Positions 12,599 through 30,457 of a DNA stretch of 32,000 bases are shown here, one piece after another (the stretch's first letter is position 1; each line of letters starts with the position of its first letter). The translations under genes were made by a program, and so were the position numbers. The notes beneath the pieces were generated by a model. That model saw only the letters and a list, made by a program, of their open reading frames with translations, was not told the DNA's origin and ran no database searches. Location of the stretch: positions 114,569 through 146,568 of the forward strand of contig CALRXS010000005.1 in the NCBI GenBank assembly GCA_943372195.1, in the 5' to 3' direction. The DNA is from Sphingobacterium thalpophilum (GTDB taxonomy: Bacteria; Bacteroidota; Bacteroidia; Sphingobacteriales; Sphingobacteriaceae).

Positions 12599-13814
12599 AA
12601 TTATAAGTCCGTATAAAAAAATAGAAAGAGCAGTCCTCTACATGATCGCTGCTGAATTTTTTATACAACTTGTAAATGCAGCGTTTATGATGGTTTTAAA
12701 TATATACTTAGCAAAGAAAAACTATTCAGATCCAGAGATTGCAGATTTTATTTCATGGCGATTTTTAAGTGTGATGTTATTAGCATTTCCCTTAGGCTTA
12801 TACGTTAAAGGTCGAAGAATCATTCCCTTCTTTCGTATTTCTGCAATCGGTGTGAGTTTGTTTTCAATTATGATATTAATATCGGTAGAATATAATTGGA
12901 ATTTTTTGATTCATTTATTTTTGGCTTGTTGGGGTGTAAGTTTTGCATTCATGCAAGTCTTAGCAATGCCATTTATATTGAGAAATACTTCATCGAGTAA
13001 TCAAAGTGCAGCAATATCATTAAGTTATTCTACTTATAGCTTCGGAATGATAGCAGCAGGTTCATTGATTTATTTATTACATATGTCTAATGAATCATAT
13101 TTCGATGAATATAAATCATTATTGGTACTCGCTGTGCTTTCTATACTTAGTGTATTATTTGTTTTAAGAATGGGTCGAAGAGAAGAAGTACCTGTGTTTG
13201 AAGGTAACAGAAAAGACTTAGGTAATTTCGATTGGAAAGTTATAGCAATGGCGATGACACCTTCTTTGATATTAGCAGTAGGTGCCGGATTAACAATACC
13301 ATTTATTAATTTATTTTTCTATAAAGTGTATGGTATGACAGCCGAAACATTTTCAATTGTGAATGCATTTTCATCAGTTACAGTTGCATTTGCAGCATTG
13401 CTAGTACCACATATAAAAAACAAGTACGGCTATAAAGTAGCAATCACTCGAACACAAAGTATTGCAGTGATTTCATTAGCACTGCTAGCCATCACAGAAT
13501 TTTACAGTACAGAAGGTTGGGCTTATTTTGCTGCTGTATTCTTCTTTTTATTACGCCAACCTTTAATGAACATGGCCGCACCAGCCACCTCTGAATTGGT
13601 GATGAATTACGTAGGTCCGAAGAATCAAGAAATTATATCAGCCTTAACCGCTTCAATTTGGTCAGGCTCATGGTTCTTGAGTGCTATAATATTTAGAGTA
13701 TTTCGTAGTAACGGAATGATGTATGGTAATGTGTTTTTGATCACCGCCGCATTGTATGCAGTAGGGGTAATCTGGTATTACTATTTGATTAAAGCTTATC
13801 AGAAAAAAGTTTAA
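12588..13814 (+). CDS. MFS-type transporter
   Basis: 408 aa with about 12 hydrophobic segments arranged 6+6 around a central charged loop (RMGRREEVPVFEGNRKD). The ATG overlaps the miaA stop by 11 nt. Confidence 0.6.
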   Translation: MLNKIISPYKKIERAVLYMIAAEFFIQLVNAAFMMVLNIYLAKKNYSDPEIADFISWRFLSVMLLAFPLGLYVKGRRIIPFFRISAIGVSLFSIMILISVEYNWNFLIHLFLACWGVSFAFMQVLAMPFILRNTSSSNQSAAISLSYSTYSFGMIAAGSLIYLLHMSNESYFDEYKSLLVLAVLSILSVLFVLRMGRREEVPVFEGNRKDLGNFDWKVIAMAMTPSLILAVGAGLTIPFINLFFYKVYGMTAETFSIVNAFSSVTVAFAALLVPHIKNKYGYKVAITRTQSIAVISLALLAITEFYSTEGWAYFAAVFFFLLRQPLMNMAAPATSELVMNYVGPKNQEIISALTASIWSGSWFLSAIIFRVFRSNGMMYGNVFLITAALYAVGVIWYYYLIKAYQKKV

Positions 13815-13853
13815 TTAATGCAGGTTTTTAAATAATCCTTATTTCTTGCAGTA

Positions 13854-13887
13854 TACTGGTGGCACGACTTAAGTCGTGCCACCAGTA
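13854..13887. terminator. Perfect 34-nt palindrome between convergent genes
   Basis: TACTGGTGGCACGACTT|AAGTCGTGCCACCAGTA is a perfect palindrome with 15-17 bp G/C-rich arms around TTAA. Neither side has a clear U-tract. Confidence 0.55.
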
Positions 13888-13909
13888 ATTACTATTTATT
13901 AAACTTTTT

Positions 13910-14398
13910 TCACTTTTGTAGTATAATAATCTTCCCGTTCGGTTCTAAAGAAATAATGGTTTTATCTTCTTCGATGTAGTTCAGGTCAAAGTACTTTACA
14001 TCCTCTAAAGCTTCATCAGTTTTGATTTTAACTAAAGCTATTTTATACTGATTAAGTATTCTATTTAAAGGTTGATTATTCTCAGCTCTGATACCAATTT
14101 TGCCATCAGCATTTCTCCAATTTGGCGCGATTAACATGGAGTTGGGTAATATTAAAAGCATAGGTTTTTCTGAGAACTCTACGAGGTCATATACCATCGG
14201 ATTGATTTCAGAGATATACATCTCAATTTTATTGATGTTATCAATCAGAATTTCTCTACTTGCGTCTTCGTATTTACCTGATTGAAATTTCTCTGCAAAA
14301 GATATTTCTTTTGAATCAATAAGTGTATAATAAGCATCACCTGTGCTAATGCCTACAACTTTTTTTGATTTTAATTCATTAATAATTTCAGCGATCAT
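13910..14398 (-). CDS. Hypothetical protein, possibly a degenerate YrdC/Sua5-like fold
   Basis: 162 aa. The order of segments (KKVVGISTGDAYYTLIDS ... KPMLLILPN ... KIGIRAENNQPLNRIL ... TIISLEPNGKIIILQK) parallels YrdC-family blocks but lacks the usual conserved residues. Its ATG overlaps the glycosyltransferase stop (ATGA). Confidence 0.45.
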   Translation of the reverse strand: MIAEIINELKSKKVVGISTGDAYYTLIDSKEISFAEKFQSGKYEDASREILIDNINKIEMYISEINPMVYDLVEFSEKPMLLILPNSMLIAPNWRNADGKIGIRAENNQPLNRILNQYKIALVKIKTDEALEDVKYFDLNYIEEDKTIISLEPNGKIIILQK

Positions 14399-15531
14399 TT
14401 ATTGAGAATTTCTGTATAGTAACTCATTAATTCATCTGCAATTTTTTTAGCATCAAATTTTTTTACAAACTCTAGATTGAATTCAATGATTTTATTTATT
14501 TCTTCGGATGATAACAATTCATTAATAGCTACGCTCAGTTCATCAACTGAATCGGGGTCAATGTATTTTGTCATCAACCCACCCGCTTCCTCTAAGCAAG
14601 ATCCTTTAGCCGCGATAATTGGTATTCTACTGTGTAATGCTTCAAGTATTGGTATGCCGAATCCTTCATATCTAGAGGGGTATATAAATATTCTTGACTG
14701 TTGATATATACTCGGAAGTTCATTGAATTTCACATCGTGCAGAAAAATAACTCTGTCATTAAGTTGATTCGAATTAATGTATTCATATAATTCATTACAG
14801 TATTCAGTTTTTTTGCCAACTAATACTAATGATGTATCAGGATTGATATTATTAAGTGTCTCTAAAATGAGTTTTGTATTTTTTCTTCGTTCGATGCTGC
14901 CAACACTTAATAAATAATTATCAGGTAAATTGTATTTTAATTTTATTTCTTGTTTAGTTTTTTCATCAGCTTGTTCTTTAAAAATAGTTGAGCAACCTTG
15001 ATAAATAACTTTAATTTTTTCAACATCAATATCATAGTATTTTACTATGTCTTTTTTAGTGCATTCTGAAATAGCGATAATACCATCAGCAGTTTCGCAA
15101 GCGTGCTTAAACTTATTATCATAAATTTTTCGATCAGCAAGTTTATAATATTCGGGATATACTTTAAATATTAAATCGTGTATAGTAACAATACTTTTAA
15201 CATTTGTATTATGAATATTTACAGGTATTTCATGACTTAAGCCATGATATAAATTTATTTTATCGCGAACCAAATCAGCTGTAATGCCATATCTTCTCCA
15301 TGTAGATGAAAATACTTCAAAGAAAAATGATTGGGGTATTTTAATATGAACTTTTGCGTGATGAGGGAGGTCTAAGAATTTAATTTGATGTTCATCGGGT
15401 ACTCTCGGGTTATATAAAAAATAATCATTTTCAGGATGTAGTTCGGTCAACAATTTTAATGTTGATCTACTATAATTTCCTAAACCTGTGAAATTTGAGA
15501 ATGCTCGTTTGGCATCGAAACCTATTCGCAT
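14395..15531 (-). CDS. Glycosyltransferase family 4 (GT-B, group 1)
   Basis: C-terminal half has the EX7E-type motif (PSRYEGFGIPILEALHSRIPIIA). Length (378 aa) and two-domain layout are typical. Confidence 0.85.
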   Translation of the reverse strand: MRIGFDAKRAFSNFTGLGNYSRSTLKLLTELHPENDYFLYNPRVPDEHQIKFLDLPHHAKVHIKIPQSFFFEVFSSTWRRYGITADLVRDKINLYHGLSHEIPVNIHNTNVKSIVTIHDLIFKVYPEYYKLADRKIYDNKFKHACETADGIIAISECTKKDIVKYYDIDVEKIKVIYQGCSTIFKEQADEKTKQEIKLKYNLPDNYLLSVGSIERRKNTKLILETLNNINPDTSLVLVGKKTEYCNELYEYINSNQLNDRVIFLHDVKFNELPSIYQQSRIFIYPSRYEGFGIPILEALHSRIPIIAAKGSCLEEAGGLMTKYIDPDSVDELSVAINELLSSEEINKIIEFNLEFVKKFDAKKIADELMSYYTEILNK

Positions 15532-15546
15532 AAATTTAGTATTGGA

Positions 15547-15591
15547 GTAGCTAGTAGTTAGTAGCTAGTCTAGTTACTAGCTACTAGCTAC
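15547..15591. repeat. CTAG-rich 45-nt near-perfect palindrome
   Basis: GTAGCTAGTAGTTAGTAGCTAG-T-CTAGTTACTAGCTACTAGCTAC has 22-nt arms with 2 non-Watson-Crick positions and five CTAG tetramers. It lies between the dapD stop and the GT4 start. Confidence 0.8.
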
Positions 15592-15603
15592 TTATGTACT
15601 CAT

Positions 15604-16422
15604 TTAAACAGCTACATTATATTCCCTCAAAGTATCATTCAATGATGTCTTGAGGTCAGTTGATTCTTTACGTTTGCCTATAATCAAAGCACATGGTACT
15701 TGATATTCACCAGCAGGATATTTTTTAGTGTAAGAGCCAGGTATAACTACTGAACGCGAAGGAACAACTCCTTTGTATTCTATTGGTTCATCACCTGTCA
15801 CATCTATAATTTTTGTTGAACCTGTTAATACTACATTCGCACCTAATACTGCTTCTTTTTCAACGCGTACACCTTCTACAACGATACATCTCGATCCTAT
15901 AAAACATCCGTCTTCAATAACAACAGGGGCAGCTTGTACAGGTTCTAGAACACCACCTATGCCAACACCGCCACTTAAGTGTACATGTTTACCAATTTGT
16001 GCACAAGAGCCAACTGTAGCCCAAGTATCAACCATTGTACCTTCATCAACATAAGCACCAATGTTTACATAAGAAGGCATCATAATTACACCACTTGCTA
16101 AATATGCGCCATATCTTGCAACGCCATGTGGAACAACCCTAACACCAGCTTTTTTATAATCTGTTTTTAATTTCATTTTGTCGTGAAAGACAAACGGACC
16201 TACCTTTGATTCTTCCATCTTAGAAATCGGGAAGTATAAAATCACTGCCTTTTTGATCCAGTCATTCACATGCCAACTATTCAAAACGGGTTCAGCAACT
16301 CTTAACCTTCCTTTGTCTAATTCTTCAATGATGAATTCAATTGCCTGAATAACATCCGGATAGCTAAGCATATTTCTATCGTCCCATGCTTTTTCTATCA
16401 ATTCTCTATATTTATTAATCAT
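15604..16422 (-). CDS. dapD: 2,3,4,5-tetrahydropyridine-2,6-dicarboxylate N-succinyltransferase
   Basis: Conserved along its full length (LDKGRLRVAEP, WIKKAVILYF, MPSYVNIGAYVDEGTMVDTWATVGSCAQIGKHVHLSGGVGIGGVLEP hexapeptide region). Confidence 0.93.
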   Translation of the reverse strand: MINKYRELIEKAWDDRNMLSYPDVIQAIEFIIEELDKGRLRVAEPVLNSWHVNDWIKKAVILYFPISKMEESKVGPFVFHDKMKLKTDYKKAGVRVVPHGVARYGAYLASGVIMMPSYVNIGAYVDEGTMVDTWATVGSCAQIGKHVHLSGGVGIGGVLEPVQAAPVVIEDGCFIGSRCIVVEGVRVEKEAVLGANVVLTGSTKIIDVTGDEPIEYKGVVPSRSVVIPGSYTKKYPAGEYQVPCALIIGKRKESTDLKTSLNDTLREYNVAV

Positions 16423-16489
16423 ATGCGTAATTTTGTTCGATATTACGAAACAATCCTTAAACTATAAACATTATTAGGTAAAATTTCCA

Positions 16490-16894
16490 ATGGGAGCATC
16501 AGATTCAGAGAAAATACGCATTGATAAATATTTATGGGCTATAAGGGTATATAAAACAAGGAGCATCGCAACAGATGCATGTAAGGCAGGTAAAGTCAAA
16601 TTAGAACAAAATAGTATTAAGCCTTCACAAAATGTGAAAATTGGAGATATCTACCATATTCAAAAATCACAAAGAAAAATTATTGTGAAAGTACTAGCAC
16701 TTCTTGAAAAAAGATTAGACGCCAAATCTGCTGCCCAATATTATGAAGATTTAAGTCCGATCGATGACACTCCTCGTCTTCATTCTGTTTTCACCGTGCC
16801 TGTTTTTCAAAGGGATAGAGGTACAGGTAGACCTACCAAGAAAGAACGAAGAGAAATTGATGATGTTCAAAGCAGTTGGGAAGATGAAGATTAA
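16490..16894 (+). CDS. RNA-binding S4 domain protein (Hsp15/HslR-like)
   Basis: IRIDKYLWAIRVYKTRSIATDACKAGKVKLEQNSIKPS is an S4-domain signature. 134 aa with a basic/acidic tail. Confidence 0.8.
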   Translation: MGASDSEKIRIDKYLWAIRVYKTRSIATDACKAGKVKLEQNSIKPSQNVKIGDIYHIQKSQRKIIVKVLALLEKRLDAKSAAQYYEDLSPIDDTPRLHSVFTVPVFQRDRGTGRPTKKERREIDDVQSSWEDED

Positions 16895-17520
16895 ATAATA
16901 CCATGAGCAAAGGCATATCTTAGCAATCCGCTTATATTATTTACACCAACCTTATCCATAATATTTGCACGATGTTTTTCAACGGTTCTAGTTGAAATTT
17001 CAAGATCTACTGCAATTTCAGGTGAAGACTTTCCTTTAGAAATAAGATTAATTATCTCAACTTCTCTCTCTGTTAATTTTAATTCTGAAAATTCTGCTTC
17101 AAATTTTTCTTTAACTTTTTCTACAATTTTTATATCAGCGCTAAAGTATTTCTCTCCATTTAACACTAGATGAATAGCTTTTAGTAATTCATCTTTTTTT
17201 GCTGATTTAAGTAAATATCCAACTGCACCTGCTTTTATCATTTTATTTAAATGCAAAATATCATCGTGCATAGTAATGGCAATTATTCTTGTCTTCGGAT
17301 GTAAACTCGTAATGATTTTCGTTGCTTCTTCACCATCCATCTGAGGCATGCTAACATCCATCAAAATTAAATCAACACGGCTTTCATTACAAATGGAAAT
17401 AGCTTCTATACCGTTATTTGCATAACCAATTATTTTAAGGTTTTCTTCAGAATCTAATGCAGACTTTATGCCATCAATCATTAATTGATGATCATCTGCT
17501 ATTAATATATTCGTATGCAT
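16891..17520 (-). CDS. Response regulator, NarL/LuxR (GerE HTH) family
   Basis: Receiver residues DD (IADDHQ), the phospho-acceptor D in LILMDVSMPQMDG, T in IIAITMH and K in GYLLKS. C-terminal HTH: LTEREVEIINLISKGKSSPEIAVDLEISTRTVEKHRANIMDKVGV. Confidence 0.92.
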   Translation of the reverse strand: MHTNILIADDHQLMIDGIKSALDSEENLKIIGYANNGIEAISICNESRVDLILMDVSMPQMDGEEATKIITSLHPKTRIIAITMHDDILHLNKMIKAGAVGYLLKSAKKDELLKAIHLVLNGEKYFSADIKIVEKVKEKFEAEFSELKLTEREVEIINLISKGKSSPEIAVDLEISTRTVEKHRANIMDKVGVNNISGLLRYAFAHGII

Positions 17521-17588
17521 AGGGTAGAATTATTTGCTTTCAAATTAAGAATAATATTTATATTTAGGCAAACTAAAATTTATATAAT

Positions 17589-17897
17589 ATGCCAAATAAT
17601 GATATTACCCTAGCACAAGCAGCAGCTCTTGTAGATGAATTCAAAAGTCTAAACATCAGTTCTCAATTTTCTACTTTTATACCTAAAGATCAAATTGAAG
17701 AGTTATTAAGTCAGCCGAATTCAATCGGAATAAATATTTATAATGGATATGTAGATGGTAAAATACATTTAGTATTTGTAAGTGCTCAGACATCAACAGA
17801 AGCCGGGTATACTTTACAAGATGATTTATCTTTAATAAAAAATACTTTCAATGGCGACCCTGAAATTTCTATTGTACCGAATGATATAAATTCATGA
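17589..17897 (+). CDS. Hypothetical small soluble protein
   Basis: 102 aa with no recognisable motif. It is coupled to the next gene by an ATGA overlap at 17894-17897. Confidence 0.5.
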   Translation: MPNNDITLAQAAALVDEFKSLNISSQFSTFIPKDQIEELLSQPNSIGINIYNGYVDGKIHLVFVSAQTSTEAGYTLQDDLSLIKNTFNGDPEISIVPNDINS

Positions 17898-18559
17898 CAA
17901 TAACTCAGAAATTTATCGTTAAGTTTTTGTTTATGATGACTACCATTCAAATTGGTATGACATTTTTTGTAGCATTACTAACTTATAAGTCACATACAAA
18001 AGTTCAACGATTTAATTTATTTTATATTTCAATAATGTTATTCTGGACATACTTTAGTATGTATGTAGGGAAGATCACTGGGAGTAACCATTTTTTAGAA
18101 AGGTTTTATGTATTAATACATGTTACATTAGGTTTGAATTTGGTTTTGCTAGAAGCTAAATCAGAAAAATTTAAAAAATATTCATATTACACATTTATAC
18201 CTTTCTTAGTAATTTGGTTAATATATATTGCAAGCAATGAGTTAGTTAAAACCTCTCCAGTTCTCGGCGGAATATCATATGCATACGTTAGTATTTTAAT
18301 GTTGTATTTATTATATGATAAAATTTCTAATCATACAGGGTCATTATTTAATGACCCTGGTATGTACATTACAGTAGGTACTTATATTTTTTATGCAGGT
18401 ACTGCTGTTGTATTTATTTTACTACAACATTATATGGTTTTTTGGCAGTATTTCCCAAATGCTAGATTTTATAAGCCTGTATTACATGCGGCTTGTAATT
18501 TTATTTTTTATAGTTTATTCATTTATTCCTTTCTATGCAATCGATCGATAAGCAACTAG
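17894..18559 (+). CDS. Polytopic (~7 TM) membrane protein, probable sensor/accessory module of the adjacent kinase
   Basis: 221 aa with about seven hydrophobic segments and short loops. It overlaps the kinase gene by 25 nt in a different frame. Confidence 0.6.
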   Translation: MTITQKFIVKFLFMMTTIQIGMTFFVALLTYKSHTKVQRFNLFYISIMLFWTYFSMYVGKITGSNHFLERFYVLIHVTLGLNLVLLEAKSEKFKKYSYYTFIPFLVIWLIYIASNELVKTSPVLGGISYAYVSILMLYLLYDKISNHTGSLFNDPGMYITVGTYIFYAGTAVVFILLQHYMVFWQYFPNARFYKPVLHAACNFIFYSLFIYSFLCNRSISN

Positions 18560-19281
18560 TAATTGGTGTTGTTGTAACTTTAATAGTTATTCTTTCACTG
18601 CTCGTTTTTATTATTGCAACAGTTGTTTTATATCAACGAAAACTTAGAGAGAAGCAACAGGCTTTATTTCAGTCTGTGATTGATGCAGAAGAAAAAGAAC
18701 GAAATAGAATTGCAAAAGATTTGCACGATAGTTTAGGTGCTTCAATGTCAGCTATCAAATTATATTTTGAAAGTTTGATGCCCAATATTGATGATAAAGA
18801 AAAATCGATTTTGGTTTATAATATGCTTGATGATGCATGTAATGAAGTACGTTCGATTTCACATCAAATGATGCCCCAAATTTTAATAAGAGAGGGTTTG
18901 TTCGTAGCTACTCGTCAATTTTGTTCTGCTTTTATGAACTTGTCTAAATTAAAGTTTGAGCTAAATATTTTAGGTCCAGAAATCAGACCTAATAACCCCA
19001 CTACAGAGCTTATGATTTATAGAGTTTTACAAGAATTAATAAATAATTCATTGAAACATTCTAAAGCCACTGAAATTATTGTTCAATTAATTCAATCCAA
19101 AAATGAGTTGATATTAAGTGTCGAAGATAATGGTATAGGAGGTGATATTAAAATTAATGATATTAGTAATGGGTTGGGAATCAATAATTTAATATCAAGG
19201 GTGAAGTACCTAAACGGACAAATAACCTTTGAAAATGTAGAAAATTCTGGATTAACGGCATTAGTTAGAATTCCTTTTTAA
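18535..19281 (+). CDS. Sensor histidine kinase, HisKA_3 (NarX/DesK/LiaS-like) class, single TM, no extracytoplasmic domain
   Basis: One TM (LVIGVVVTLIVILSLLVFIIATVVLY), H-box RIAKDLHDSLGASMSAIK, N-box LQELINNSLKHSKAT, and G-boxes VEDNGIGG / NGLGINNLISRV. Confidence 0.9.
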   Translation: MQSIDKQLVIGVVVTLIVILSLLVFIIATVVLYQRKLREKQQALFQSVIDAEEKERNRIAKDLHDSLGASMSAIKLYFESLMPNIDDKEKSILVYNMLDDACNEVRSISHQMMPQILIREGLFVATRQFCSAFMNLSKLKFELNILGPEIRPNNPTTELMIYRVLQELINNSLKHSKATEIIVQLIQSKNELILSVEDNGIGGDIKINDISNGLGINNLISRVKYLNGQITFENVENSGLTALVRIPF

Positions 19282-19379
19282 AGTATTTTTTTTATTTAAC
19301 TAATTGGTTTATTTTATATATTAGATGACCTATGTATTAGGCATATTAGTTAAACTAAACTAAATAATTCTAAATAATA

Positions 19380-21206
19380 ATGCGTAAAGATTACCGATTT
19401 AGTGTAATAAGTTTATACTTATGTGCATTGTTGACTTTTGTATTCATACAAAATTCATCAGCACAACCTTTTTCTTATCAGCCTAACTTCAACCAAAATC
19501 CGAAGACCTTAAACTCGGCAAATAGTTATGAAGTTATCGTAAAACAAGAATTAGCGAAATTCTTTAGTCCAGGCACCTTTGTCGTTGACATTAACATATT
19601 ACAAGGAAGCATTGAGGTCATCAAACCTAGCAATAGGCCTAACATCAAGAAAAAAATGGGTCGTTTGCCTGGTATGCCAGTTCTTCCCAAAAGTATCGAA
19701 GAAACAACACCTACAGATACTAATTCAAATTATATTTTCAGTATAGAAGAAGTTGATTATTTAGATGTATCTGTTTTAGTTGATACCACTTTCAATGATA
19801 CTGATTTAGATTTCATAAAGTCGCTAGTTCGTTCAGTAATTCCAATTGATGAAACAAAGGGTGATATTGTAAAAGTTAAAAGAGCAGTATTTCCAAAAGC
19901 ACAAGAAAGTAATCAAGCTATTACAGCTCCAGTACCTGTTCAAACTAAACCTGAACCCAATCAATATCCGAATTATAACACAGCACCCACTGAAAATAAA
20001 AGTACAGATACAGAAAAGCCAGAACAGAATATTTTATTGTACGCGCTATTATTTATCTTACTCATTTGTTTAGTCATTATTGTATTTGTTGTATTCTTAC
20101 TATACAGAAGAAGTAAACAAAATAATAACTCTAATAACAATGATGTACAAAAAGAAGAAAAGAAGTCAAATAAAGAAGATGAATTAAGTATAGTATACCC
20201 TCGCGAAGAATTAAAATCAAGTCCGCAAACCGAAGACATCATCAACTACGAATTTAATAGACAACATGTTATTACTAGTGTTATCTCAAACCCGAAAGAC
20301 GTAGCTGCTATGTTAGAAGCATGGATGTTAACAAACCCTGAGGAAGGAAAACTACGAGCTGCTAATGCATTAAATGCTGTAAATCCGAAATTACTTAATT
20401 TTATTAAACCACATTTATCTGATAAAGTTTATACTGAATTGTCACAAGCAATTAACAACGGACAGTTAAATTCTTATACAGATAAATATCAAGAGGCAAG
20501 AGATTTCAGTAAAGAGTTATTATCAATAAATACCGAACACGAAAAAAATGAAGATCTCTTTGAGTTTCTAAATCAAATTACAGATGCTCAAGTAATACAT
20601 ATGTTGAAAGATGAAGATGATAATCTGTCTTCTATTTTATTAGCACAACTAAGCTCTAAGCGCTCAAAGAATATTTTGGGAATGATGGATATCAATAGAA
20701 GGTCCTCGATAATCATGAAAATGAGTAAGATTGATTTGATATCTTCTTCTATTTATAGAGAAGTTGCTGGTTATTTCTCAAAGAAAGCAGTAGAGGTAAA
20801 GGGAATGCAAAATGTAGCATTCGACGGTCTTCAAACTATACTAGATATTTTAGATCAAATGCAAGACGAAGATCAAGATCAATTAATTGGTTCTATTGCA
20901 TCTCAAGATTTAGAGTTGGCAAATAACATCAAACAACAATTTGTTGGCTTTAAAAATCTAGTTTATTTAACAGATGTTCAATTAGAAGCAGCATTGAGAG
21001 ATATAGATACAGATACAATAGTTGCAGCATTAACCGGATCTACAGCTGCAATACAAAATAAAGTAATTGCACAAAGAGCAGTCCGTGAGCAAACATTAAT
21101 TAGATCTGAATTAGATGGTTCAAATACTATAAGTCCTGAATTACGCGACGCCTCTAAAAAGAAAATTATTGATTCAATAAGAAAAGTTTTAAAAACGATT
21201 GCCTAA
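19380..21206 (+). CDS. Membrane protein with FliF-like topology and a FliG-like (M and C domain) cytoplasmic region
   Basis: 608 aa. N-terminal signal/TM (aa 9-28), exported region aa 29-217 and a second TM at aa 218-242 (nt 20031-20105). The cytoplasmic part has a FliG_M-like stretch (aa ~395-470) and a FliG_C-like stretch (aa ~505-608: LTDVQLEAALRDIDTDTIVAALTGSTAAIQNKVIAQRAVREQTLIRSELDG...). This is a by-eye comparison to remembered FliG consensus. Confidence 0.6.
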   Translation: MRKDYRFSVISLYLCALLTFVFIQNSSAQPFSYQPNFNQNPKTLNSANSYEVIVKQELAKFFSPGTFVVDINILQGSIEVIKPSNRPNIKKKMGRLPGMPVLPKSIEETTPTDTNSNYIFSIEEVDYLDVSVLVDTTFNDTDLDFIKSLVRSVIPIDETKGDIVKVKRAVFPKAQESNQAITAPVPVQTKPEPNQYPNYNTAPTENKSTDTEKPEQNILLYALLFILLICLVIIVFVVFLLYRRSKQNNNSNNNDVQKEEKKSNKEDELSIVYPREELKSSPQTEDIINYEFNRQHVITSVISNPKDVAAMLEAWMLTNPEEGKLRAANALNAVNPKLLNFIKPHLSDKVYTELSQAINNGQLNSYTDKYQEARDFSKELLSINTEHEKNEDLFEFLNQITDAQVIHMLKDEDDNLSSILLAQLSSKRSKNILGMMDINRRSSIIMKMSKIDLISSSIYREVAGYFSKKAVEVKGMQNVAFDGLQTILDILDQMQDEDQDQLIGSIASQDLELANNIKQQFVGFKNLVYLTDVQLEAALRDIDTDTIVAALTGSTAAIQNKVIAQRAVREQTLIRSELDGSNTISPELRDASKKKIIDSIRKVLKTIA

Positions 21207-22270
21207 TGAGAGTTAAGTTATTCATATTATTTTTATTTATTTCATCGCATAGCTTCTCTCAATCAGTTAGAAGCAATCCGCAAGTTAGAAAACAAACGGA
21301 GCTTACAAGGTTGATGGAAGAAGTGGTTGATGTATTAAAAGTGCCTGATTTATTATATAGAAGAGTATCTATTGTATCTTTTGACTATCCTGATTTTATT
21401 TTAAGTGAGAGTGAAGCATCACAGATAAGAAGTAGAATAGAGGGAGCTTTTGCTAAATCTGGATTTGTTATAGTTTCAGCACCTGAGTTCAAGCAAAAAG
21501 CCTTAACAATAGTTTCAGGTACAGATTCAAATCTAAAAATATCTCGACAAAATTCTTTAGAGAGATTATTGAATAATGAAAAAGCATTTTCTGATGTTAT
21601 AGATAAGTATGCAATTCAAGGTGTAATATATGCTCAACTTACATACGATTATGTGACGGGTTATCAGCTGAATCTACAATTATTAAAATCTAATTCTAAA
21701 GAGCTTTTGTATTCTACAATTGTATATTCTGATCCGAAATTATACGTATCTAGAAGTATGCAAACACAAATTACAGCTGGTTATATAATCAATAATACCA
21801 AAAATTATTTAATCAATAATATGCCTTTTATAGGTGGAAGTTTTGCAGGTTTTGCAGAATTAGGGGTGCATTTACGACAACCTTTTACTCCTACTAGAAC
21901 TGGATATTACGGAATAACAGGCGGACTATCATTATTGAATTTAATACAAAGTGGTAATGATACTTCTTTTAGAAATTTTAATAAAATTATACCTACAGTA
22001 GGATTTCAATATTCATTATGTTTTTTCAAGAAAAATGATTTGCCTCGTGAATATTGGATGGAAGCTTTTCAGTCAGTTAACTTATTAATTGCAGATGAAT
22101 GGTTACCAGTAGTTAGACAAGGAATAACAGTAAATGCAACTAAAAACATGAGCGTTCAAATAGATTTAAGATATTATCTAATAAGCTCTAATTTGACTAA
22201 CGGCAACAATTTGTTGCAATTAAATAATTTTGGATATGGACTTAACATTATATACAGGCCGAAGATATAG
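21206..22270 (+). CDS. Exported protein: periplasmic alpha/beta N-domain plus C-terminal beta-barrel-like domain (putative outer-membrane component)
   Basis: Signal peptide MRVKLFILFLFISSHSFS|QS. The N-domain pattern (VSIVSFDYPD...SQIRSRIEGAFAKSGFVIVS...IQGVIYAQLTYDYVTGYQLNLQLL) is reminiscent of FlgO/LpoB/CsgG-type modules. The C-terminal ~170 aa show alternating hydrophobic strands (GYYGITGGLSLLNL, VGFQYSLCFF, MSVQIDLRYYLIS, GYGLNIIYRP). The ATG overlaps the upstream stop (TAATG). Confidence 0.55.
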   Translation: MRVKLFILFLFISSHSFSQSVRSNPQVRKQTELTRLMEEVVDVLKVPDLLYRRVSIVSFDYPDFILSESEASQIRSRIEGAFAKSGFVIVSAPEFKQKALTIVSGTDSNLKISRQNSLERLLNNEKAFSDVIDKYAIQGVIYAQLTYDYVTGYQLNLQLLKSNSKELLYSTIVYSDPKLYVSRSMQTQITAGYIINNTKNYLINNMPFIGGSFAGFAELGVHLRQPFTPTRTGYYGITGGLSLLNLIQSGNDTSFRNFNKIIPTVGFQYSLCFFKKNDLPREYWMEAFQSVNLLIADEWLPVVRQGITVNATKNMSVQIDLRYYLISSNLTNGNNLLQLNNFGYGLNIIYRPKI

Positions 22271-22799
22271 TATAATTGTTTTTGCTTTGATTTTTTTTAG
22301 TTCTTGCCAAACGCAGATGACTCCTCAAGAGTTAGTTGAGCAGCAGAGAATTTCAGAAATGCAAAGAAGAACAGTTAATGCTAAAGATCCTGTAAACATT
22401 AAATACAAAAATAATTCATCGAGCATTGAATATGCTGTTGGTAAAGGAAATGAAGAGTTTATACTTGATATGAACACTGATCCTAAATTTAAAAAAGATG
22501 TTATTGATGGGGTATTAAATATATCGAGAGAAGCACAAATAGCAGTTAATGAAGCAGTGAAAGATATTCGCAAAGCGCAAGAATTTTTATACATCGATGA
22601 TTATAATACCGCACTAGAATACGTTAATGAATCTATTAAAATTATACCAACTGCAGAAGGTTATGCTTTGAAGGGGAGTATTTTATATATGATGGGAGAT
22701 GAACCTGCTGCAAAAGAAAGTTGGTTATTAGCATTAAAAATTGATCCTGAAATTAAAATTCCGACAGCTAAAGAGTTGAAGGAAATATCTTCAAAATAA
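22230..22799 (+). CDS. TPR-repeat lipoprotein
   Basis: RRYSIIVFALIFFSSC is a lipobox. There are about two TPR units (YNTALEYVNESIKIIPTAEGYALKGSILYMMGDEPAAKESWLLALKIDPE). The ORF-track start at 22230 is TTG; an ATG lies at 22236. It overlaps the upstream gene by 35-41 nt. Confidence 0.7.
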   Translation: MDMDLTLYTGRRYSIIVFALIFFSSCQTQMTPQELVEQQRISEMQRRTVNAKDPVNIKYKNNSSSIEYAVGKGNEEFILDMNTDPKFKKDVIDGVLNISREAQIAVNEAVKDIRKAQEFLYIDDYNTALEYVNESIKIIPTAEGYALKGSILYMMGDEPAAKESWLLALKIDPEIKIPTAKELKEISSK

Positions 22800-22805
22800 T
22801 TAGAT

Positions 22806-23621
22806 ATGAAGTTCTCTATTGGTAGTTTTATTGGTTTTGCCATTTGTACAGGATTTATTATTCTTGGACTTATGGATACAAGTGGGTATATAAGATTAGA
22901 GCATTATTTGCCTAGCTTCTTAAAAAATCCATTTATACATTTTGCAGGTTTCTTCATTGTATTTGGAGGAGTATTAGGCGCGATGTTTATTATGTACCCA
23001 ACAGATGCAGTTCTAAAAGCACTAGGAAGTTTTAGACATATGTTTAATCATTCGAATACAAAAGCCTCTACTATGGCTGAAGATGTTGAAATGATTGTTT
23101 CTTGGTCAGAGAAAATCAAAAATGACAAAAAGTCTTTCATCCAAGAAATGACACAAAATAATAAAGACCCATACACAAGAGTATTATTCGATTTATATAG
23201 CACAAATTATTCTAGTCATGATATCAGAGCAATGGGTGAGGTCAATATTGAAAAAGAATTTAATCAATCTTTACAAATGTCTGATGTAATTCATGCCATG
23301 GCGAACTCTGCACCAGCATTTGGTATGGTGGGTACTGTATTAGGTATGGTAGTAATGTTAAGCAATCTTAGTGATCCTGCTAATATAGGTCCGGGTATAT
23401 CAACCGGCTTAATCGGAACTTTATACGGAGTAACTTCAGCCAATCTATTTTTCATTCCATTATCACGAAAAATAAAATTCAATGCACTTATTCAACAGCG
23501 AAGAGAAATTATCATTCTAGAAGGCTTGCTTCTAATTAAAGAAAACAAACCTGCATTAGTGATTAGAGATCAGTTGATGTCATTTGTTTCAAGAGAAAAT
23601 GAAACTAAGCCAATAAAATAA
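22806..23621 (+). CDS. MotA/PomA-type stator A subunit (MotA/TolQ/ExbB channel family)
   Basis: 271 aa in a 2 TM + ~100-aa cytoplasmic loop + 2 TM layout. The TM3-TM4 block SAPAFGMVGTVLGMVVMLSNLSDPANIGPGISTGLIGTLYGVTSANLFFIPL closely follows the MotA/PomA signature as I recall it. It includes both conserved prolines (P170 at 23313-23315, P218 at 23457-23459). Confidence 0.85.
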   Translation: MKFSIGSFIGFAICTGFIILGLMDTSGYIRLEHYLPSFLKNPFIHFAGFFIVFGGVLGAMFIMYPTDAVLKALGSFRHMFNHSNTKASTMAEDVEMIVSWSEKIKNDKKSFIQEMTQNNKDPYTRVLFDLYSTNYSSHDIRAMGEVNIEKEFNQSLQMSDVIHAMANSAPAFGMVGTVLGMVVMLSNLSDPANIGPGISTGLIGTLYGVTSANLFFIPLSRKIKFNALIQQRREIIILEGLLLIKENKPALVIRDQLMSFVSRENETKPIK

Positions 23622-24298
23622 TGAGTTTAGAATCAAATAAAAAGAAGGTACACAAAAATGCATTTGGTGAAGGTCAAGAAGAATTATGGCTCATCACTTA
23701 TGCTGATTTGATAACACTTCTATTGTGTTTTTTTATTCTTTTATTTTCTGCCTCTTCTATAGATCAAAATGTTTGGGAAACTATAAAAACCAGTTATAGC
23801 ACCAAAATGAAAAAGAAGGTAGCTAATACTCCTTTAGCTGACATAAAAAATCAACTCGATTCAATGTTAATGAAAGAAGTGAAAGATAATAAACTTGAAA
23901 TCTTAAAAGATGAGAATGGTATCAACATGAGATTTTTAAGTACTTCTTTTTATAATTCAGGAGAAGCTACATTATTACCAGAAGGGAAAGCAATTGTCGA
24001 CAAGATTTTTAATATCATCAAAAATGTAAAAGGTACAAAATTCAATATTGATGTCGAAGGACACACAGACGACAATCCGATTTCTAATATAAGCTACCCC
24101 TCAAATTGGGAACTATCAGTAGCACGTGCTTCTAATGTTGTTAGATATTTAGTAGAACGCGGTATAGAACCTCGTAGATTAAAAGCATCAGGTTATGCCG
24201 ACACTAAACCTGTCGTCGCTAATAGAGATTCATTAGGTAAGCCAATACCCGACAACCAATCAATCAATCGCCGAGTAGTCTTAAAAATCCACTACTAA
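23621..24298 (+). CDS. MotB-type stator B subunit with OmpA-like peptidoglycan-binding domain
   Basis: The single TM carries the conserved Asp in WLITYADLITLLLCFFILLF (D29, nt 23705-23707). C-terminal OmpA-like block: VEGHTDDNPI...SNWELSVARASNVVRYLVERGIEPRRLKASGYADTKP...NRRVVLKI. The ATG overlaps the motA-like stop (TAATG). Confidence 0.88.
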   Translation: MSLESNKKKVHKNAFGEGQEELWLITYADLITLLLCFFILLFSASSIDQNVWETIKTSYSTKMKKKVANTPLADIKNQLDSMLMKEVKDNKLEILKDENGINMRFLSTSFYNSGEATLLPEGKAIVDKIFNIIKNVKGTKFNIDVEGHTDDNPISNISYPSNWELSVARASNVVRYLVERGIEPRRLKASGYADTKPVVANRDSLGKPIPDNQSINRRVVLKIHY

Positions 24299-26748: not shown

Positions 26749-28299
26749 ATGAAGAAATTACTGTTTTTGTTTTGCATCATCCTTACACAAAATACATATG
26801 CTCAAAACAATAAGCCTGTATTGAGTAATTTGAATTTAACATATAATGATAGTATGTTAATTGTTACATATGATGTTTTCGATGTAGAGGATGATACGCT
26901 AGAAGTTTTTATGACGATTAAGAATGTAAAATTGAAATCATTTATAAATGCTGATAAAACAAGTGGTGATATAGGTAAGGGTATTAAATCTGGCAACAAA
27001 AAAACTATTTACTGGAGATACGATACGGTAGCATTTAATAAAGTGATTGATGTAAGAGTTTATGCTGATGATCATAAAACTAAATCAATTCAAGATATAT
27101 TAGCATTGGTCGATACGAATAGAATGAAGCGCGATATGGATAGTCTAGAGGGCACTCGACACTTTTCTGCGGCACCTCAGCGATTAGCAAAAATAAAAGA
27201 TACTATTTCAACACGATTGATAAACTATGGATCTGAGATGAGAGAACAAGTTTTTCAGTATGGTGCATATGCGGCTAAAAATATAGAAGGTTCGAAAACA
27301 GGTAGGGGACAAGAGGATAAATATTTTATTATTGATGCACATTTTGATTGTGTATCGAACGGACCAGGGGCCGATGATAATTTATCGGCAGTCGTTGCAA
27401 TGCTTGAAGCAGCGAGGGTCTTGAACGGTGTAGAATTAAATAAGAGTATAAAATTTGTTGGTTTTGATTTAGAAGAACTTGGCTTGTTAGGTAGTAAAGA
27501 GTATGTCAAAAATTTCATGCCAAAAGACCAACAATTAAAGGGCGTGTATAATTTTGAGATGATCGGATATTATTCAACCAGAAATAATTCTCAAACCTTA
27601 CCAACGGGTTTCAATTTAATATTTCCTGAAGCATATAATCAAGTAGCACAAGATACCTTCAAAGGAAATTTCATTACCAATGTGGGTAATATTACTTCCT
27701 CCATTTTCGTAAATGAATTCAAGAGTGCAGCTGCAGCTTATGTGCCCAATTTAAAAGTTGTCTCTGTCAAAGTACCAGATAATGGAATGTTAGCACCAGA
27801 TCTAAGAAGGAGCGATCATGCACCCTTTTGGGATGCCGGATATAGTGCGATTATGTTAACTGATGGCGCAAATTTTAGAAATAAAAATTATCATACAGCA
27901 AAAGATGTTTCAGACTCCTTGAACTTTCAATTCATGTCAAACGTACTAAAAGCGACAATAGCAAGTGTTCTTAGTTTATCAGGTTTGTCTCATGCCGGAG
28001 TTGCGAGTGAAGAAATTGAGATTTTAAATGCAGTAGGGTTCAATCAGATTGAGCAGTTTAATGAAATACGTATTCAACCTAATCCTGCTTCAAATCAATG
28101 TTTTGTTGAATGGCCTAGTAATTTTGAGGCAAATACTATAAAAGTCTATGATTCAAAAGCCGAATTGGTTTATTCAAGTGAGATTAGCAATAAGAATTCA
28201 CATATTTTACTGACGGATGTCTACGCTAATGGTCATTATTTCGTAGAACTAATATCGTCAAAAGGGCAATTACGAAGCAGATTTGTGGTAAAACACTAA
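26749..28299 (+). CDS. M28-family aminopeptidase with N-terminal Ig-like domain and T9SS C-terminal sorting domain
   Basis: Signal peptide ...QNTYA|QN. M28 metal-ligand context (IIDAHFDCVSNGPGADDNLSAVVAMLEAAR, FVGFDLEELGLLGS, YNFEMIGY, SDHAPFW). The last ~75 aa (IRIQPNPASNQCFVEW...GHYFVELISSKGQLRSRFVVKH) look like a T9SS CTD. Confidence 0.85.
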   Translation: MKKLLFLFCIILTQNTYAQNNKPVLSNLNLTYNDSMLIVTYDVFDVEDDTLEVFMTIKNVKLKSFINADKTSGDIGKGIKSGNKKTIYWRYDTVAFNKVIDVRVYADDHKTKSIQDILALVDTNRMKRDMDSLEGTRHFSAAPQRLAKIKDTISTRLINYGSEMREQVFQYGAYAAKNIEGSKTGRGQEDKYFIIDAHFDCVSNGPGADDNLSAVVAMLEAARVLNGVELNKSIKFVGFDLEELGLLGSKEYVKNFMPKDQQLKGVYNFEMIGYYSTRNNSQTLPTGFNLIFPEAYNQVAQDTFKGNFITNVGNITSSIFVNEFKSAAAAYVPNLKVVSVKVPDNGMLAPDLRRSDHAPFWDAGYSAIMLTDGANFRNKNYHTAKDVSDSLNFQFMSNVLKATIASVLSLSGLSHAGVASEEIEILNAVGFNQIEQFNEIRIQPNPASNQCFVEWPSNFEANTIKVYDSKAELVYSSEISNKNSHILLTDVYANGHYFVELISSKGQLRSRFVVKH

Positions 28300-28648: not shown

Positions 28649-29557
28649 TTATTTCATTAAGTATTTATTTAATTCAACATATTCAAAATCTGGAGAGTCC
28701 ATAAAAAATTGTCTTAGTTGCCAAACGTGACCTGAACCATAAATTAGTAATAATCTTTCTTCTTTGTTGAAGTCCGCTATATCATATACGTTGGCAAAAA
28801 CTCTCAAATTTCTTCTATACCAATTTGCAACAACATCAGCGCCTAAATAGTTATCTCCGGCACCTTCTAATAGAATATTAGTTAAATATGCTTGATGGTC
28901 TTTTCTTCTGTTTTTGGGGTTATTAAGTATTGTTAGATGTTCAGTGAGTGTTTGTACTGTTTTTAATGAGTCAGTCCATTCGTAAAAAGATTGATAATCA
29001 TAACGTGTACTTTTTTCAAATTGCCCCTTTGATTTTAAATATGCATCTCCATCATATTTATCCCAATTAAGCTCTACTCCAAACCATTTTGCAGAAGCAT
29101 CTGAACAATATATGTTTTTATGCCCCATCATTTTCGCTAGTTTGAATCCAATTTGATATACTTCATTTTTTTTATCGTCAATGCTAAATGATCCATTTAG
29201 ATATTTTTGATAACGATCATTTGTAATGCTATCACTTTTAATTCTATCCCATTCTACCAGTATCTTTGTAGGTTTATATAATGTAATTTGTTTAAGAAGT
29301 ATTTCCAATTCTTCTTGTCTTTTTTTTTCAAGTATATCGAATACATATTTAGGCTTATAACTATCCAACCCTGGATTGTCAAAATGAAATACTCCTATTA
29401 TCATGACTTTTGCCTTATGCTTTCCAATAAAAAGTTCGGGGTCAGATATTGAATGAGATTTTTTATTAAGTTTATTCCCCTTAATGATTGGTTCATGTTG
29501 AGCATAACATGATGTAAAGAGTGATATAGCTATAATACCTAAATATATATTTCTCAT
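28649..29557 (-). CDS. Exported (lipobox FTSC) protein, DUF5694-like / TraB-GumN-Tiki superfamily-like
   Basis: VMIIGVFHFDNPGLD...KRQEELEILLKQITLYKPTKILVEW...NEVYQIGFKLAK...WYRRNLRVFANV...LLIYGSGHVWQL fits my memory of that family's blocks. Not searched. Confidence 0.5.
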   Translation of the reverse strand: MRNIYLGIIAISLFTSCYAQHEPIIKGNKLNKKSHSISDPELFIGKHKAKVMIIGVFHFDNPGLDSYKPKYVFDILEKKRQEELEILLKQITLYKPTKILVEWDRIKSDSITNDRYQKYLNGSFSIDDKKNEVYQIGFKLAKMMGHKNIYCSDASAKWFGVELNWDKYDGDAYLKSKGQFEKSTRYDYQSFYEWTDSLKTVQTLTEHLTILNNPKNRRKDHQAYLTNILLEGAGDNYLGADVVANWYRRNLRVFANVYDIADFNKEERLLLIYGSGHVWQLRQFFMDSPDFEYVELNKYLMK

Positions 29558-29593: not shown

Positions 29594-30457
29594 TTAATTT
29601 TTAATTATTTTTTTACTTAAAAACTCATTATTTATATTCATCAGTCTTAGCAAATACACTCCACTTTTTAATTCATCAATGTTTATTTTTTTTTCTTTAA
29701 TTTTTCCAGTTACGACTAATTCACCTATTGAATTATAAATAAAATATTCAAGTAAATTTATCTGATTCGTTTTAATATTTAATAAATCATTCACAGGATT
29801 AGGATATACTATTAATTCATCGGACCTTAATGTATTAATGTCAGTTGAAAATTTTTCTAAAATACCAATCCCCCAAGAGCCAGGTATAAACCGACTTGCT
29901 GATATCGGCCAATGGTTAAAAGCATTGAAAGTATTACTAACTAAGAAACTTATTCCGATTGTATCATTTCTACTTAAATCTATACCGACTGTTCTAAACG
30001 GAATTTTTATTTCTACTAAATCAGTTAATGGTAAACCTTGTAATATATTATTGGCCTGCCATGTTACTTTTGATGCAGCACAGCTAGCATAGTTACCATA
30101 AGCACCTTTGTATTCACAATCAGTTGTTGATACATGAAACCACCAATCGTCTGATAAAAAATCTAATGATCGATCAAAATTAATATCCAGTAACACTTCC
30201 GGAAAACGAACATTTGCCGATTCTAAATTGCCCTTATAACACAATAATAAATTTTCACCATCATGCTTGAAATATATTTTTACTTTTTTAGTACTTAAAA
30301 AGTTTATCTCCACAGAGTCTGAACCGCTCCATTCATCTACGCTCATTTGACCATCAACCCATATTGTATCAGCTAATGGAATTAATATTTGATCTTGAGC
30401 CTTAGCTCGAGTATTTATTTGTATACAGATCAAAATTATCAGTAATATTTTTTTCAT
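29594..30457 (-). CDS. Secreted protein with CBM9/DOMON-like N-domain and T9SS C-terminal sorting domain
   Basis: Signal peptide ...NTRAKA|QD. IWVDGQMSVDEWSGSDSVEI...IYFKHDGENLLLCY resembles CBM9-like modules. The CTD is LIVYPNPVNDLLNIKT...GVYLLRLMNINNEFLSKKIIKN. Confidence 0.65.
   Translation of the reverse strand: MKKILLIILICIQINTRAKAQDQILIPLADTIWVDGQMSVDEWSGSDSVEINFLSTKKVKIYFKHDGENLLLCYKGNLESANVRFPEVLLDINFDRSLDFLSDDWWFHVSTTDCEYKGAYGNYASCAASKVTWQANNILQGLPLTDLVEIKIPFRTVGIDLSRNDTIGISFLVSNTFNAFNHWPISASRFIPGSWGIGILEKFSTDINTLRSDELIVYPNPVNDLLNIKTNQINLLEYFIYNSIGELVVTGKIKEKKINIDELKSGVYLLRLMNINNEFLSKKIIKN

Follow-up and report, generated by a model that had tools for sequence, protein, structure and literature searches.

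A five-gene module joining a FliF-FliG-like protein to MotA/MotB-type proteins in an apparently non-flagellar, envelope-spanning context

FliG and the MotA/MotB (MotAB) stator together are taken to be the hallmark of torque generation in the flagellum, and to our knowledge this pair has not been described in any non-flagellar use. The present study concerns a module of five genes at positions 19380-24298 of a 32,000-nucleotide (nt) stretch of contig CALRXS010000005.1 of Sphingobacterium thalpophilum (assembly GCA_943372195.1); this whole stretch is referred to as the window. Gene 1 of the module encodes a protein in which part of FliF is joined to FliG, genes 4 and 5 encode MotA- and MotB-type proteins, and the two genes between them encode predicted outer-membrane and lipoprotein partners. 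We regard the module as the rotor-stator core of a flagellar motor placed in an envelope-spanning setting that appears to be non-flagellar, and it is more widespread than the single window shows.

Flagellar FliF carries three ring-building motifs (RBM1, RBM2 and RBM3), with a beta-collar, between two transmembrane helices, an arrangement that gene 1 does not have; RBM1 and RBM2 of FliF house the export gate. A fusion of FliF and FliG is known from the Chlamydiaceae, bacteria without flagella, as a protein of ~330 amino acids (aa) (Bergeron 2016, PeerJ, PMC4768692). It consists of a signal sequence, RBM2 and one unassigned RBM, a transmembrane segment and a FliG_M-like part only, has no MotAB, and is thought to act with the injectisome, FlhA and FliI (PMC4768692). 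This protein is the closest published precedent, being likewise a shortened FliF (signal sequence, reduced RBMs, transmembrane segment) joined to a FliG-like cytoplasmic domain. Gene 1 differs from it in its length of 608 aa, in its combination of an RBM3-like domain with a full FliG that includes the torque domain, and in the presence of MotAB in the same operon. No description of the five-gene module was found in the searchable full-text literature.

The module shares with the flagellar motor core the N, M and C domains of FliG, the flagellar-type MotA and MotB families and probably the FliF RBM3/collar fold, and it retains the MotB aspartate, the MotA prolines, the plug, the OmpA-like anchor and the torque-helix arginine of FliG; the two probably share a torque-generating principle. 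It differs from that core in having FliF and FliG as one polypeptide, with RBM3 only and probably a single transmembrane helix, and in lacking the FliM-binding EHPQR motif and any nearby genes for FliM/FliN, export gate, rod, hook, filament or chemotaxis. Instead, it has an outer-membrane barrel protein and a TPR (tetratricopeptide repeat) lipoprotein without flagellar family assignment. Among flagellar accessory proteins, MotX of Vibrio and PflA/PflB of Campylobacter scaffold stators, and the N domain of FlgT is TolB-N-like. These accessories (MotX/MotY, FlgO/FlgP/FlgT, PflA/PflB) resemble the module in that TPR or Sel1 proteins and outer-membrane-associated alpha/beta proteins stand beside MotAB-type stators, but they gave no significant sequence match to it, and gene 2 carries a beta-barrel of its own.

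In the other 5:2 motor systems (GldLM, ExbBD-TonB, TolQRA-Pal, AglRQS and ZorAB), a MotA/ExbB-family motor is similarly encoded with dedicated periplasmic and outer-membrane partners. None of these systems makes use of FliG, and their transducer meets its motor within the membrane or the periplasm, whereas in the module the partner is a cytoplasmic FliG domain, as in flagella. No match to GldL/GldM, TonB/ExbD, TolA/TolR or ZorA/ZorC/ZorD was found in Pfam, NCBIfam or PADLOC, the only similarity being a weak one of MotA to TolQ/ExbB. Assignment of the module to Zorya or another defence system was rejected, as PADLOC returned no match for genes 1-4 and a generic ZorB similarity (73 bits) for gene 5. 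At the domain level, the parts are assigned to FliG, MotA/MotB and, more tentatively, FliF RBM3, but to divergent subfamilies of these, because all equivalog-level cut-offs failed.

The five genes and their products

The ORF (open reading frame) listing and the DNA itself give five tightly packed + strand ORFs, preceded by a short spacer, as follows.

19380..21206, + strand: gene 1, FliF(RBM3)-FliG fusion, 608 aa (ORF, Pfam, Foldseek)
21206..22270, + strand: gene 2, secreted protein with outer-membrane beta-barrel, 354 aa (ORF, structural model, Foldseek)
22230..22799, + strand: gene 3, TPR lipoprotein, 189 aa (TTG start, 22230) or 187 aa (ATG start, 22236) (ORF, Pfam, lipobox)
22806..23621, + strand: gene 4, flagellar-type MotA/PomA stator subunit, 271 aa (Pfam, NCBIfam, PDB)
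23621..24298, + strand: gene 5, MotB-type stator subunit, 225 aa (Pfam, NCBIfam)
19282..19379, + strand: AT-rich spacer of 98 bp 5' of gene 1, presumed promoter region (sequence reading)

TAATG stop/start overlaps join genes 1 and 2 (21204-21208) and genes 4 and 5 (23619-23623). Genes 2 and 3 overlap within 22230-22270, by 41 nt with the TTG start of gene 3 or by 35 nt with the ATG start, and a gap of 6 nt (22800-22805) separates gene 3 from gene 4. Directly 3' of gene 5 lies pgk, convergent on the operon. A sigma-70 consensus scan was uninformative (46 sites observed against 40.8 expected).

Gene 1 comprises a periplasmic domain like FliF RBM3 and its beta-collar, a single membrane-spanning helix and FliG in full, with its N, M and C domains. 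Its parts are located as follows.

19380..19463, + strand: predicted cleavable signal peptide, aa 1-28 (MRKDYR, hydrophobic core, presumed cleavage at SSA/Q; sequence reading)
19497..19904, + strand: FliF RBM3-like periplasmic domain, aa ~40-175 (model, Foldseek, Pfam in relatives, invariant residues)
20028..20105, + strand: single transmembrane helix, aa ~217-242 (model helix 215-248)
20226..21203, + strand: cytoplasmic FliG-like region (N, M, C), aa ~283-608, with the codon of torque-helix residue R569 at 21084-21086 (Foldseek, phmmer, alignment)

The FliG-like region matches Pfam FliG_C at 55.8 bits (gathering cut-off 23.3) and FliG_M at 31.4 bits (cut-off 25), and phmmer matched gene 1 to the Thermotoga maritima FliG-MC structure (1lkv) with an E value of 5e-14. 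Against TIGR00207, the canonical FliG equivalog, it scored 78.6 bits over model positions 96-320 only, missing the cut-off of 226.7. When an AF2 (AlphaFold2) model of gene 1 was used as the Foldseek query, all significant PDB matches were to FliG or to FliF RBM3/S-ring. Full-length FliG (8wiw_3, 3hjl) aligned over 310-320 columns, indicating that the FliG N domain is also present, and the FliG_C chain of a MotAB-FliG complex (8ucs_H) aligned with a TM-score of 0.74 and a root-mean-square deviation of 1.7 A. In 15 diverse relatives of gene 1, Pfam detected FliG_C and FliG_M in every sequence, FliG_N in 13 and YscJ_FliF_C in four (best E value 1.3e-5); gene 1 itself scored 22.5 bits for YscJ_FliF_C, slightly under the cut-off of 23.8.

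The RBM3 assignment of the periplasmic domain is further supported by Foldseek matches to the FliF RBM3/S-ring/collar chains 8z5v_A, 8z4g, 8ftf and 6sd1 (E values of 4e-5 to 1e-3, ~150-160 columns), and a profile of this domain alone found FliF as its top PDB matches, at E ~0.1. In the model, its secondary structure runs alpha-beta-beta-alpha-beta, which is the order of a ring-building motif. Two very long strands form a collar-like hairpin with an invariant LPG(M/L)P tip loop (P97), and the domain is closed by the motif (R/K)GD-x-V-x-V...FP, with G161 and D162 invariant; the same motif closes FliF RBM3 in the two top PDB matches of the domain-only profile. The periplasmic region, at ~145-190 aa, holds one ring-building unit and matches RBM3/S-ring chains only. 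By model secondary structure and Foldseek, RBM1 and RBM2 of FliF are absent from gene 1.

A hydrophobic window occurs at the position equivalent to the gene 1 transmembrane helix in nearly all of 150 relatives, most of which also have an N-terminal hydrophobic segment, often ending in Q. In gene 1 the corresponding residue, Q29, is invariant (alignment A1) and fits the "Q-rule" signal peptides of Bacteroidota. Because this N-terminal segment resembles a cleaved signal peptide, the mature gene 1 protein is probably single-pass, unlike FliF with its two transmembrane helices. An ungapped alignment to Salmonella FliG (Salmonella residue = gene 1 residue minus 288) places R281 of the torque helix at gene 1 R569, which is invariant in the family down to 15% identity, and D289 at E577, which is acidic in 12 of 15 sequences. 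The FliM-binding motif EHPQR of Salmonella FliG (E125-H-P-Q) corresponds to E412-D-D-N in gene 1, with only the Glu kept across the family.

By their sequences, genes 4 and 5 are assigned to flagellar-type MotA and MotB with intact ion-path residues, a plug and a peptidoglycan anchor. Gene 4 matches Pfam MotA_ExbB at 70 bits; its best NCBIfam models are flagellar (PRK09109 at 130 bits, MotP, PomA), as against 23 bits for TolQ and 17 for ExbB, and its PDB sequence matches are exclusively to flagellar MotA/PomA. Gene 5 matches MotB_plug (61.6 bits) and OmpA (65.6 bits) in Pfam, and MotD (163 bits) and MotS (147 bits) in NCBIfam; it has a plug, a transmembrane segment with Asp29 (codon 23705-23707) and an OmpA-like peptidoglycan-binding domain at aa 110-203. 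MotB D29 (D32 of E. coli), MotA P170 (P173) and MotA P218 (P222) are invariant in all loci aligned, with the E. coli numbering counted by hand at MotA R90/E98 and MotB D32. Both genes miss every NCBIfam equivalog cut-off and so belong to a divergent MotA/MotB subfamily.

The AF2 model of gene 2 (predicted local distance difference test score, pLDDT, 73) describes an outer-membrane beta-barrel protein with a periplasmic alpha/beta domain, which begins with a signal peptide (SFS/Q) and continues as follows.

21278-21730, + strand: alpha/beta N-domain of gene 2, aa ~25-175 (AF2 model)
21761-22255, + strand: outer-membrane beta-barrel of gene 2, aa ~186-350 (AF2 model, Foldseek)

By Foldseek, the barrel matches the OmpA transmembrane domain, OmpW and OmpX, and the N-domain matches TolB with E ~1e-5 but with a low TM-score of ~0.2. 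No Pfam or NCBIfam family was assigned to gene 2, and a family profile of its N-domain found nothing in the PDB. A family for the N-domain was also sought by sequence and left unassigned, the faint matches to Pfam coming from single members only (FlgO at E 0.015, LpoB at E 0.088); together with the TolB-N-like fold, these offer a tentative lead to the flagellar accessory proteins. Iterated profile searches found gene 2 homologs across phyla, one match per locus, and the distant homologs terminate in a Y-x-F outer-membrane beta-signal. Gene 3 is a predicted periplasmic TPR lipoprotein, with an FSS-C lipobox and a C-terminal TPR (Pfam TPR_1/TPR_2 at aa 142-174, slightly under the cut-offs).

All five protein assignments had been anticipated in a sequence-only reading of the window, made by eye before any database search. 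The five co-directional genes, TAATG overlaps, 35-41 nt overlap and 6-nt gap that it described are all found in the DNA. Its calls for gene 2 (signal peptide, periplasmic N-domain, C-terminal beta-barrel) and gene 3 (TPR lipoprotein) are borne out by the AF2 model with Foldseek and by the lipobox with TPR, respectively, and Pfam, NCBIfam and PDB matches uphold its call of genes 4 and 5 as MotA and MotB with the transmembrane Asp and OmpA-like domain. For gene 1, its FliG M and C domains stand, with the N domain added, and its comparison to FliF holds for RBM3 only; its FliF-like, two-helix topology gives way to a protein that is probably single-pass. The FliG-family match of the C-terminal part of gene 1, singled out beforehand as a point on which that reading could fail, is significant by profile and by structure.

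Distribution of the module

When 1.84 billion representative proteins were searched exhaustively with a profile, 2156 gene 1 matches were obtained at E<1e-3, with 99 at E<1e-30, revealing a family wider than the close clade that was reached by word-indexed homolog searches and a peptide-pattern contig scan (10 close loci). Clustered at 50% identity, gene-1-like proteins make up at least 150 groups. Among the 150 best, almost all measure 560-750 aa with near full-length matches, and nearly all follow a common plan of signal peptide, LPG motif, single mid-protein transmembrane segment and FliG-like C terminus; the Joint Genome Institute (JGI) annotation of gene 1 relatives is FliG. Short relatives (~220-330 aa) were considered as unfused FliG and rejected, P0129 being a contig-edge fragment and P0089 lacking a start Met. 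Another relative, P0164 (754 aa), is gene-1-like with an in-frame continuation into TPR lipoprotein-like sequence, a possible gene-calling or sequencing artefact.

The close relatives (62-96% identity) are lake metagenome-assembled genomes (MAGs) labelled Sphingobacteriales or Sphingobacterium, in which the five genes and their chromosomal surroundings are the same. Other members carry the NCBI names Fibrobacterales/Fibrobacterota, Elusimicrobiota, and Gammaproteobacteria or "Pseudomonadota" MAGs. Among the related loci, denoted here by L numbers, the five genes occur together in 15 of the 17 distinct loci with enough sequence, and truncated loci are consistent as far as they reach. The five-gene order is identical in L013 (a genome bearing a type IX secretion system, T9SS), L016, L017, L019 (Fibrobacterales MAG), L020 (Elusimicrobiota MAG) and L022 (a 3.28-Mb contig), and all five protein kinds are present in shuffled order in L021 (Gammaproteobacteria MAG). 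Homologs of gene 3 occupy the same position in L013, L016, L017, L019 and L020, with lipoboxes LASC or LTGC. The module is thus not confined to Bacteroidota, as it recurs in Fibrobacterota, Elusimicrobiota and a Gammaproteobacteria MAG. Because the five genes recur together in related loci, in fact in every sufficiently long one except the two most distant, their grouping is far beyond chance. The conservation of this neighbourhood in relatives, on which the sequence-only reading had also staked its proposal, therefore holds, even across phyla.

Several of these loci have features of their own. In L020, MotB (331 aa, 14575-15570) is fused to an extra C-terminal TPR, which ties the TPR component to the stator. 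In L022, gene 2 is called as two ORFs (229 and 86 aa, 11817-12903), possibly through an assembly frameshift or as a pseudogene, with the other four genes intact. The L021 order (12614-18819) is Sel1/SPOR protein, MotA, MotB, gene 2 homolog, TPR and gene 1 homolog, and immediately after this module come a BBP2_2 barrel and polysaccharide export genes of the Wza/Wzc/Wzy type, a possible hint of its output. In L014 and L015, which form the most distant subfamily, the gene-1-like proteins are 675-724 aa long with Pro/Gln-rich tails, and the flanking small beta-barrel is 211 aa; L015 also has an ExbB-ExbD-ExbD cluster 2.5 kb upstream. In the close clade, comparison within the same sequence pairs gave 61-86% identity for folded domains and 15-23% for linkers, and this much greater conservation of the folded domains argues for purifying selection and against decay.

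Sphingobacteriales, Fibrobacterales and Elusimicrobiota are lineages not known to be flagellated. A survey in ISME J (2025) places Bacteroidota among non-motile phyla. As the sequence-only reading had claimed, no other flagellar family is found in the window, there being no FliM/FliN, export, rod, hook, filament or chemotaxis gene among its 26 ORFs of at least 120 aa, and in 21 related loci from at least four phyla the ~10 kb on either side of the module is likewise free of flagellar genes. In the non-flagellate "Sphingobacteria", MotA was earlier held to be undetectable (Cavalier-Smith, 2006), and the MotA of this module corrects that older view of non-flagellate Bacteroidetes as being without it.

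Possible function and rival readings

With moderate confidence, the operon is proposed to encode a stand-alone rotor-stator machine that is powered by ions and made of flagellar motor parts without a flagellum, in which both the rotation and the ring are putative. Gene 1 would oligomerise through its ring-building motif into an S-ring-like ring bearing a cytoplasmic FliG ring. Cell-wall-anchored MotA5B2 units would push the FliG torque helix and so turn this ring, driven by ion flow through MotB D29, and the TPR lipoprotein would perhaps position or scaffold the stators by analogy with MotX and PflA/PflB. Loss of the FliM-binding motif would leave the motor without a switch, turning in one direction only, and lacking RBM1 and RBM2 it would assemble no export gate, rod or filament. 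The LPG(L/M)P loop that caps the collar-like hairpin is the most conserved periplasmic element and the likely point of contact with gene 2; through it, output may be handed on to the periplasmic part of this outer-membrane barrel protein. Spanning the envelope, the machine could then drive some process at the outer membrane or cell surface, for example surface movement or envelope remodelling. More tentatively, and at somewhat less than an even chance, all of these steps may hold together as an autonomous, flagellum-independent rotary engine, in which a FliF-RBM3/FliG ring is spun by MotAB and torque is delivered via the collar tip to the outer-membrane barrel.

Several observations weigh against this proposal. 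The AF2 model of gene 1 is of low confidence (pLDDT 51) and served for local fold matching only. Three further charged torque-helix residues of Salmonella FliG are not conserved in the family, K264 corresponding to T552, D288 to S576 and R297 to S585 of gene 1, so the interface between FliG and stator has diverged. The two cytoplasmic charges by which MotA faces FliG, R90 and E98, are loosely maintained, as far as an uncertain alignment of this loop shows. The close clade has K105 for R90, but L013, L016 and L017 have N, Q or L there; for E98, L016 and L017 carry D or E, whereas Q, L or N stands in L013 and the close clade. In L014 and L015, a TPR gene lies upstream and a small barrel gene downstream of the gene-1-like gene, with no adjacent MotAB.

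The main rival reading is a non-rotary force transducer similar to Tol-Pal or Ton, in which MotAB would energise a monomeric or small-oligomer gene 1 protein whose periplasmic tip pulls or gates the outer-membrane barrel. The parts of the module do parallel those of Tol-Pal, with a 5:2 motor, a single-pass transducer, a TolB-N-like domain, an OmpA-like protein that binds peptidoglycan and a TPR protein that recalls CpoB; the gene 1 product probably crosses the membrane once, and its invariant periplasmic tip motif suggests contact with a specific partner. This rival nonetheless appears unlikely, as the Tol/Ton contact is intramembrane whereas the conserved contact element of the module is the cytoplasmic FliG torque helix, the periplasmic domain of gene 1 is a ring-building motif matching the FliF S-ring, MotA is of flagellar type (130 bits) rather than TolQ (23) or ExbB (17), and the TolB similarity of gene 2 has a TM-score of only ~0.2. 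The same ring-building domain, together with the conserved outer-membrane and TPR partners, exceeds what would be needed by a regulatory or sensory device, in which the MotAB/FliG-like pair would sense ion-motive force, envelope stress or load and signal without mechanical output. In the window and two relatives, two-component genes do adjoin the module, and polysaccharide export genes flank it in L021, but most relatives lack the two-component genes, of which the 99%-identical L012 keeps only fragments, so that a sensor is given a small chance.

A similarly slim one is allowed to an ordinary flagellar sub-operon with the remaining regulon elsewhere in the genome. Every recognisable domain is flagellar, and JGI labels the relatives FliG; against this, RBM1, RBM2 and the FliM-binding motif are lost, a single polypeptide combines FliF and FliG, the operon also encodes partner proteins that are not flagellar, flagellar neighbours are lacking at 21 loci in at least four phyla, and the carriers bear the labels of Sphingobacteriales, Fibrobacterales and Elusimicrobiota, which are not known to be flagellated. 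Very improbable, and the least likely of all, is that the module is either a functionless remnant left after loss of a flagellum or an anti-phage system resembling Zorya. Other non-motile bacteria do contain flagellar relic genes, but here the ORFs are intact across loci, conservation is domain-specific, and the genes are retained across phyla in at least 150 clusters at 50% identity. As for Zorya, MotB matches PADLOC ZorB models at 73 bits but flagellar models at 163 bits, MotA misses all ZorA models, and there is no ZorA, ZorC or ZorD match.

If the proposed rotor-stator machine exists, a rotor-stator pair retained without secretion apparatus, switch or axial structures can serve another output, and the module would be a natural minimal system for torque generation, with one rotor protein and two stator proteins. 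It would also bear on the origin of the flagellum, namely on whether rotation is possible without type III secretion. Read as a rotary engine, the module would be a further class of 5:2-motor envelope machines in Bacteroidota, Fibrobacterota, Elusimicrobiota and some Proteobacteria, and would have originated either as a stripped-down, exapted flagellar motor or as a surviving relative of a pre-secretion rotor.

Neighbouring genes in the window

The window has a GC content of ~31% and carries rpoC, an RND (resistance-nodulation-division) pump, pgk, gap and three T9SS-sorted cargo proteins. T9SS C-terminal sorting domains are present in an M28 peptidase (26749-28299), a 287-aa protein (29594-30457) and an FG-GAP/ASPIC protein (30461-31900), from which it follows that the host has a T9SS, in agreement with the sequence-only reading; a DUF5694 protein is encoded at 28649-29557.

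Between an S4-domain gene and the module, positions 16891-19281 encode a LuxR-type response regulator (- strand), a multi-pass membrane protein of 221 aa without a Pfam match, and a HisKA_3 histidine kinase. This two-component block is shared by the window, L004 and L005 but missing from L001, L003 and L006-L011. In L012, where the module is 99% identical, two kinase fragments remain of it, and because so near a relative keeps only these fragments, the block is considered a recent indel. The two-component system was thus rejected as a part of the module, being absent from most relatives and fragmentary in L012.

Farther upstream, on the - strand at 4825-9156, a single ORF of 1443 aa combines a full AcrB/RND transporter (aa 5-1034) with an OEP/TolC-like outer-membrane-factor domain (aa 1284-1439), and is followed by a membrane-fusion protein gene. 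A fusion of RND pump and outer-membrane factor would be topologically odd; the L001 ortholog of this ORF is 1447 aa in length.

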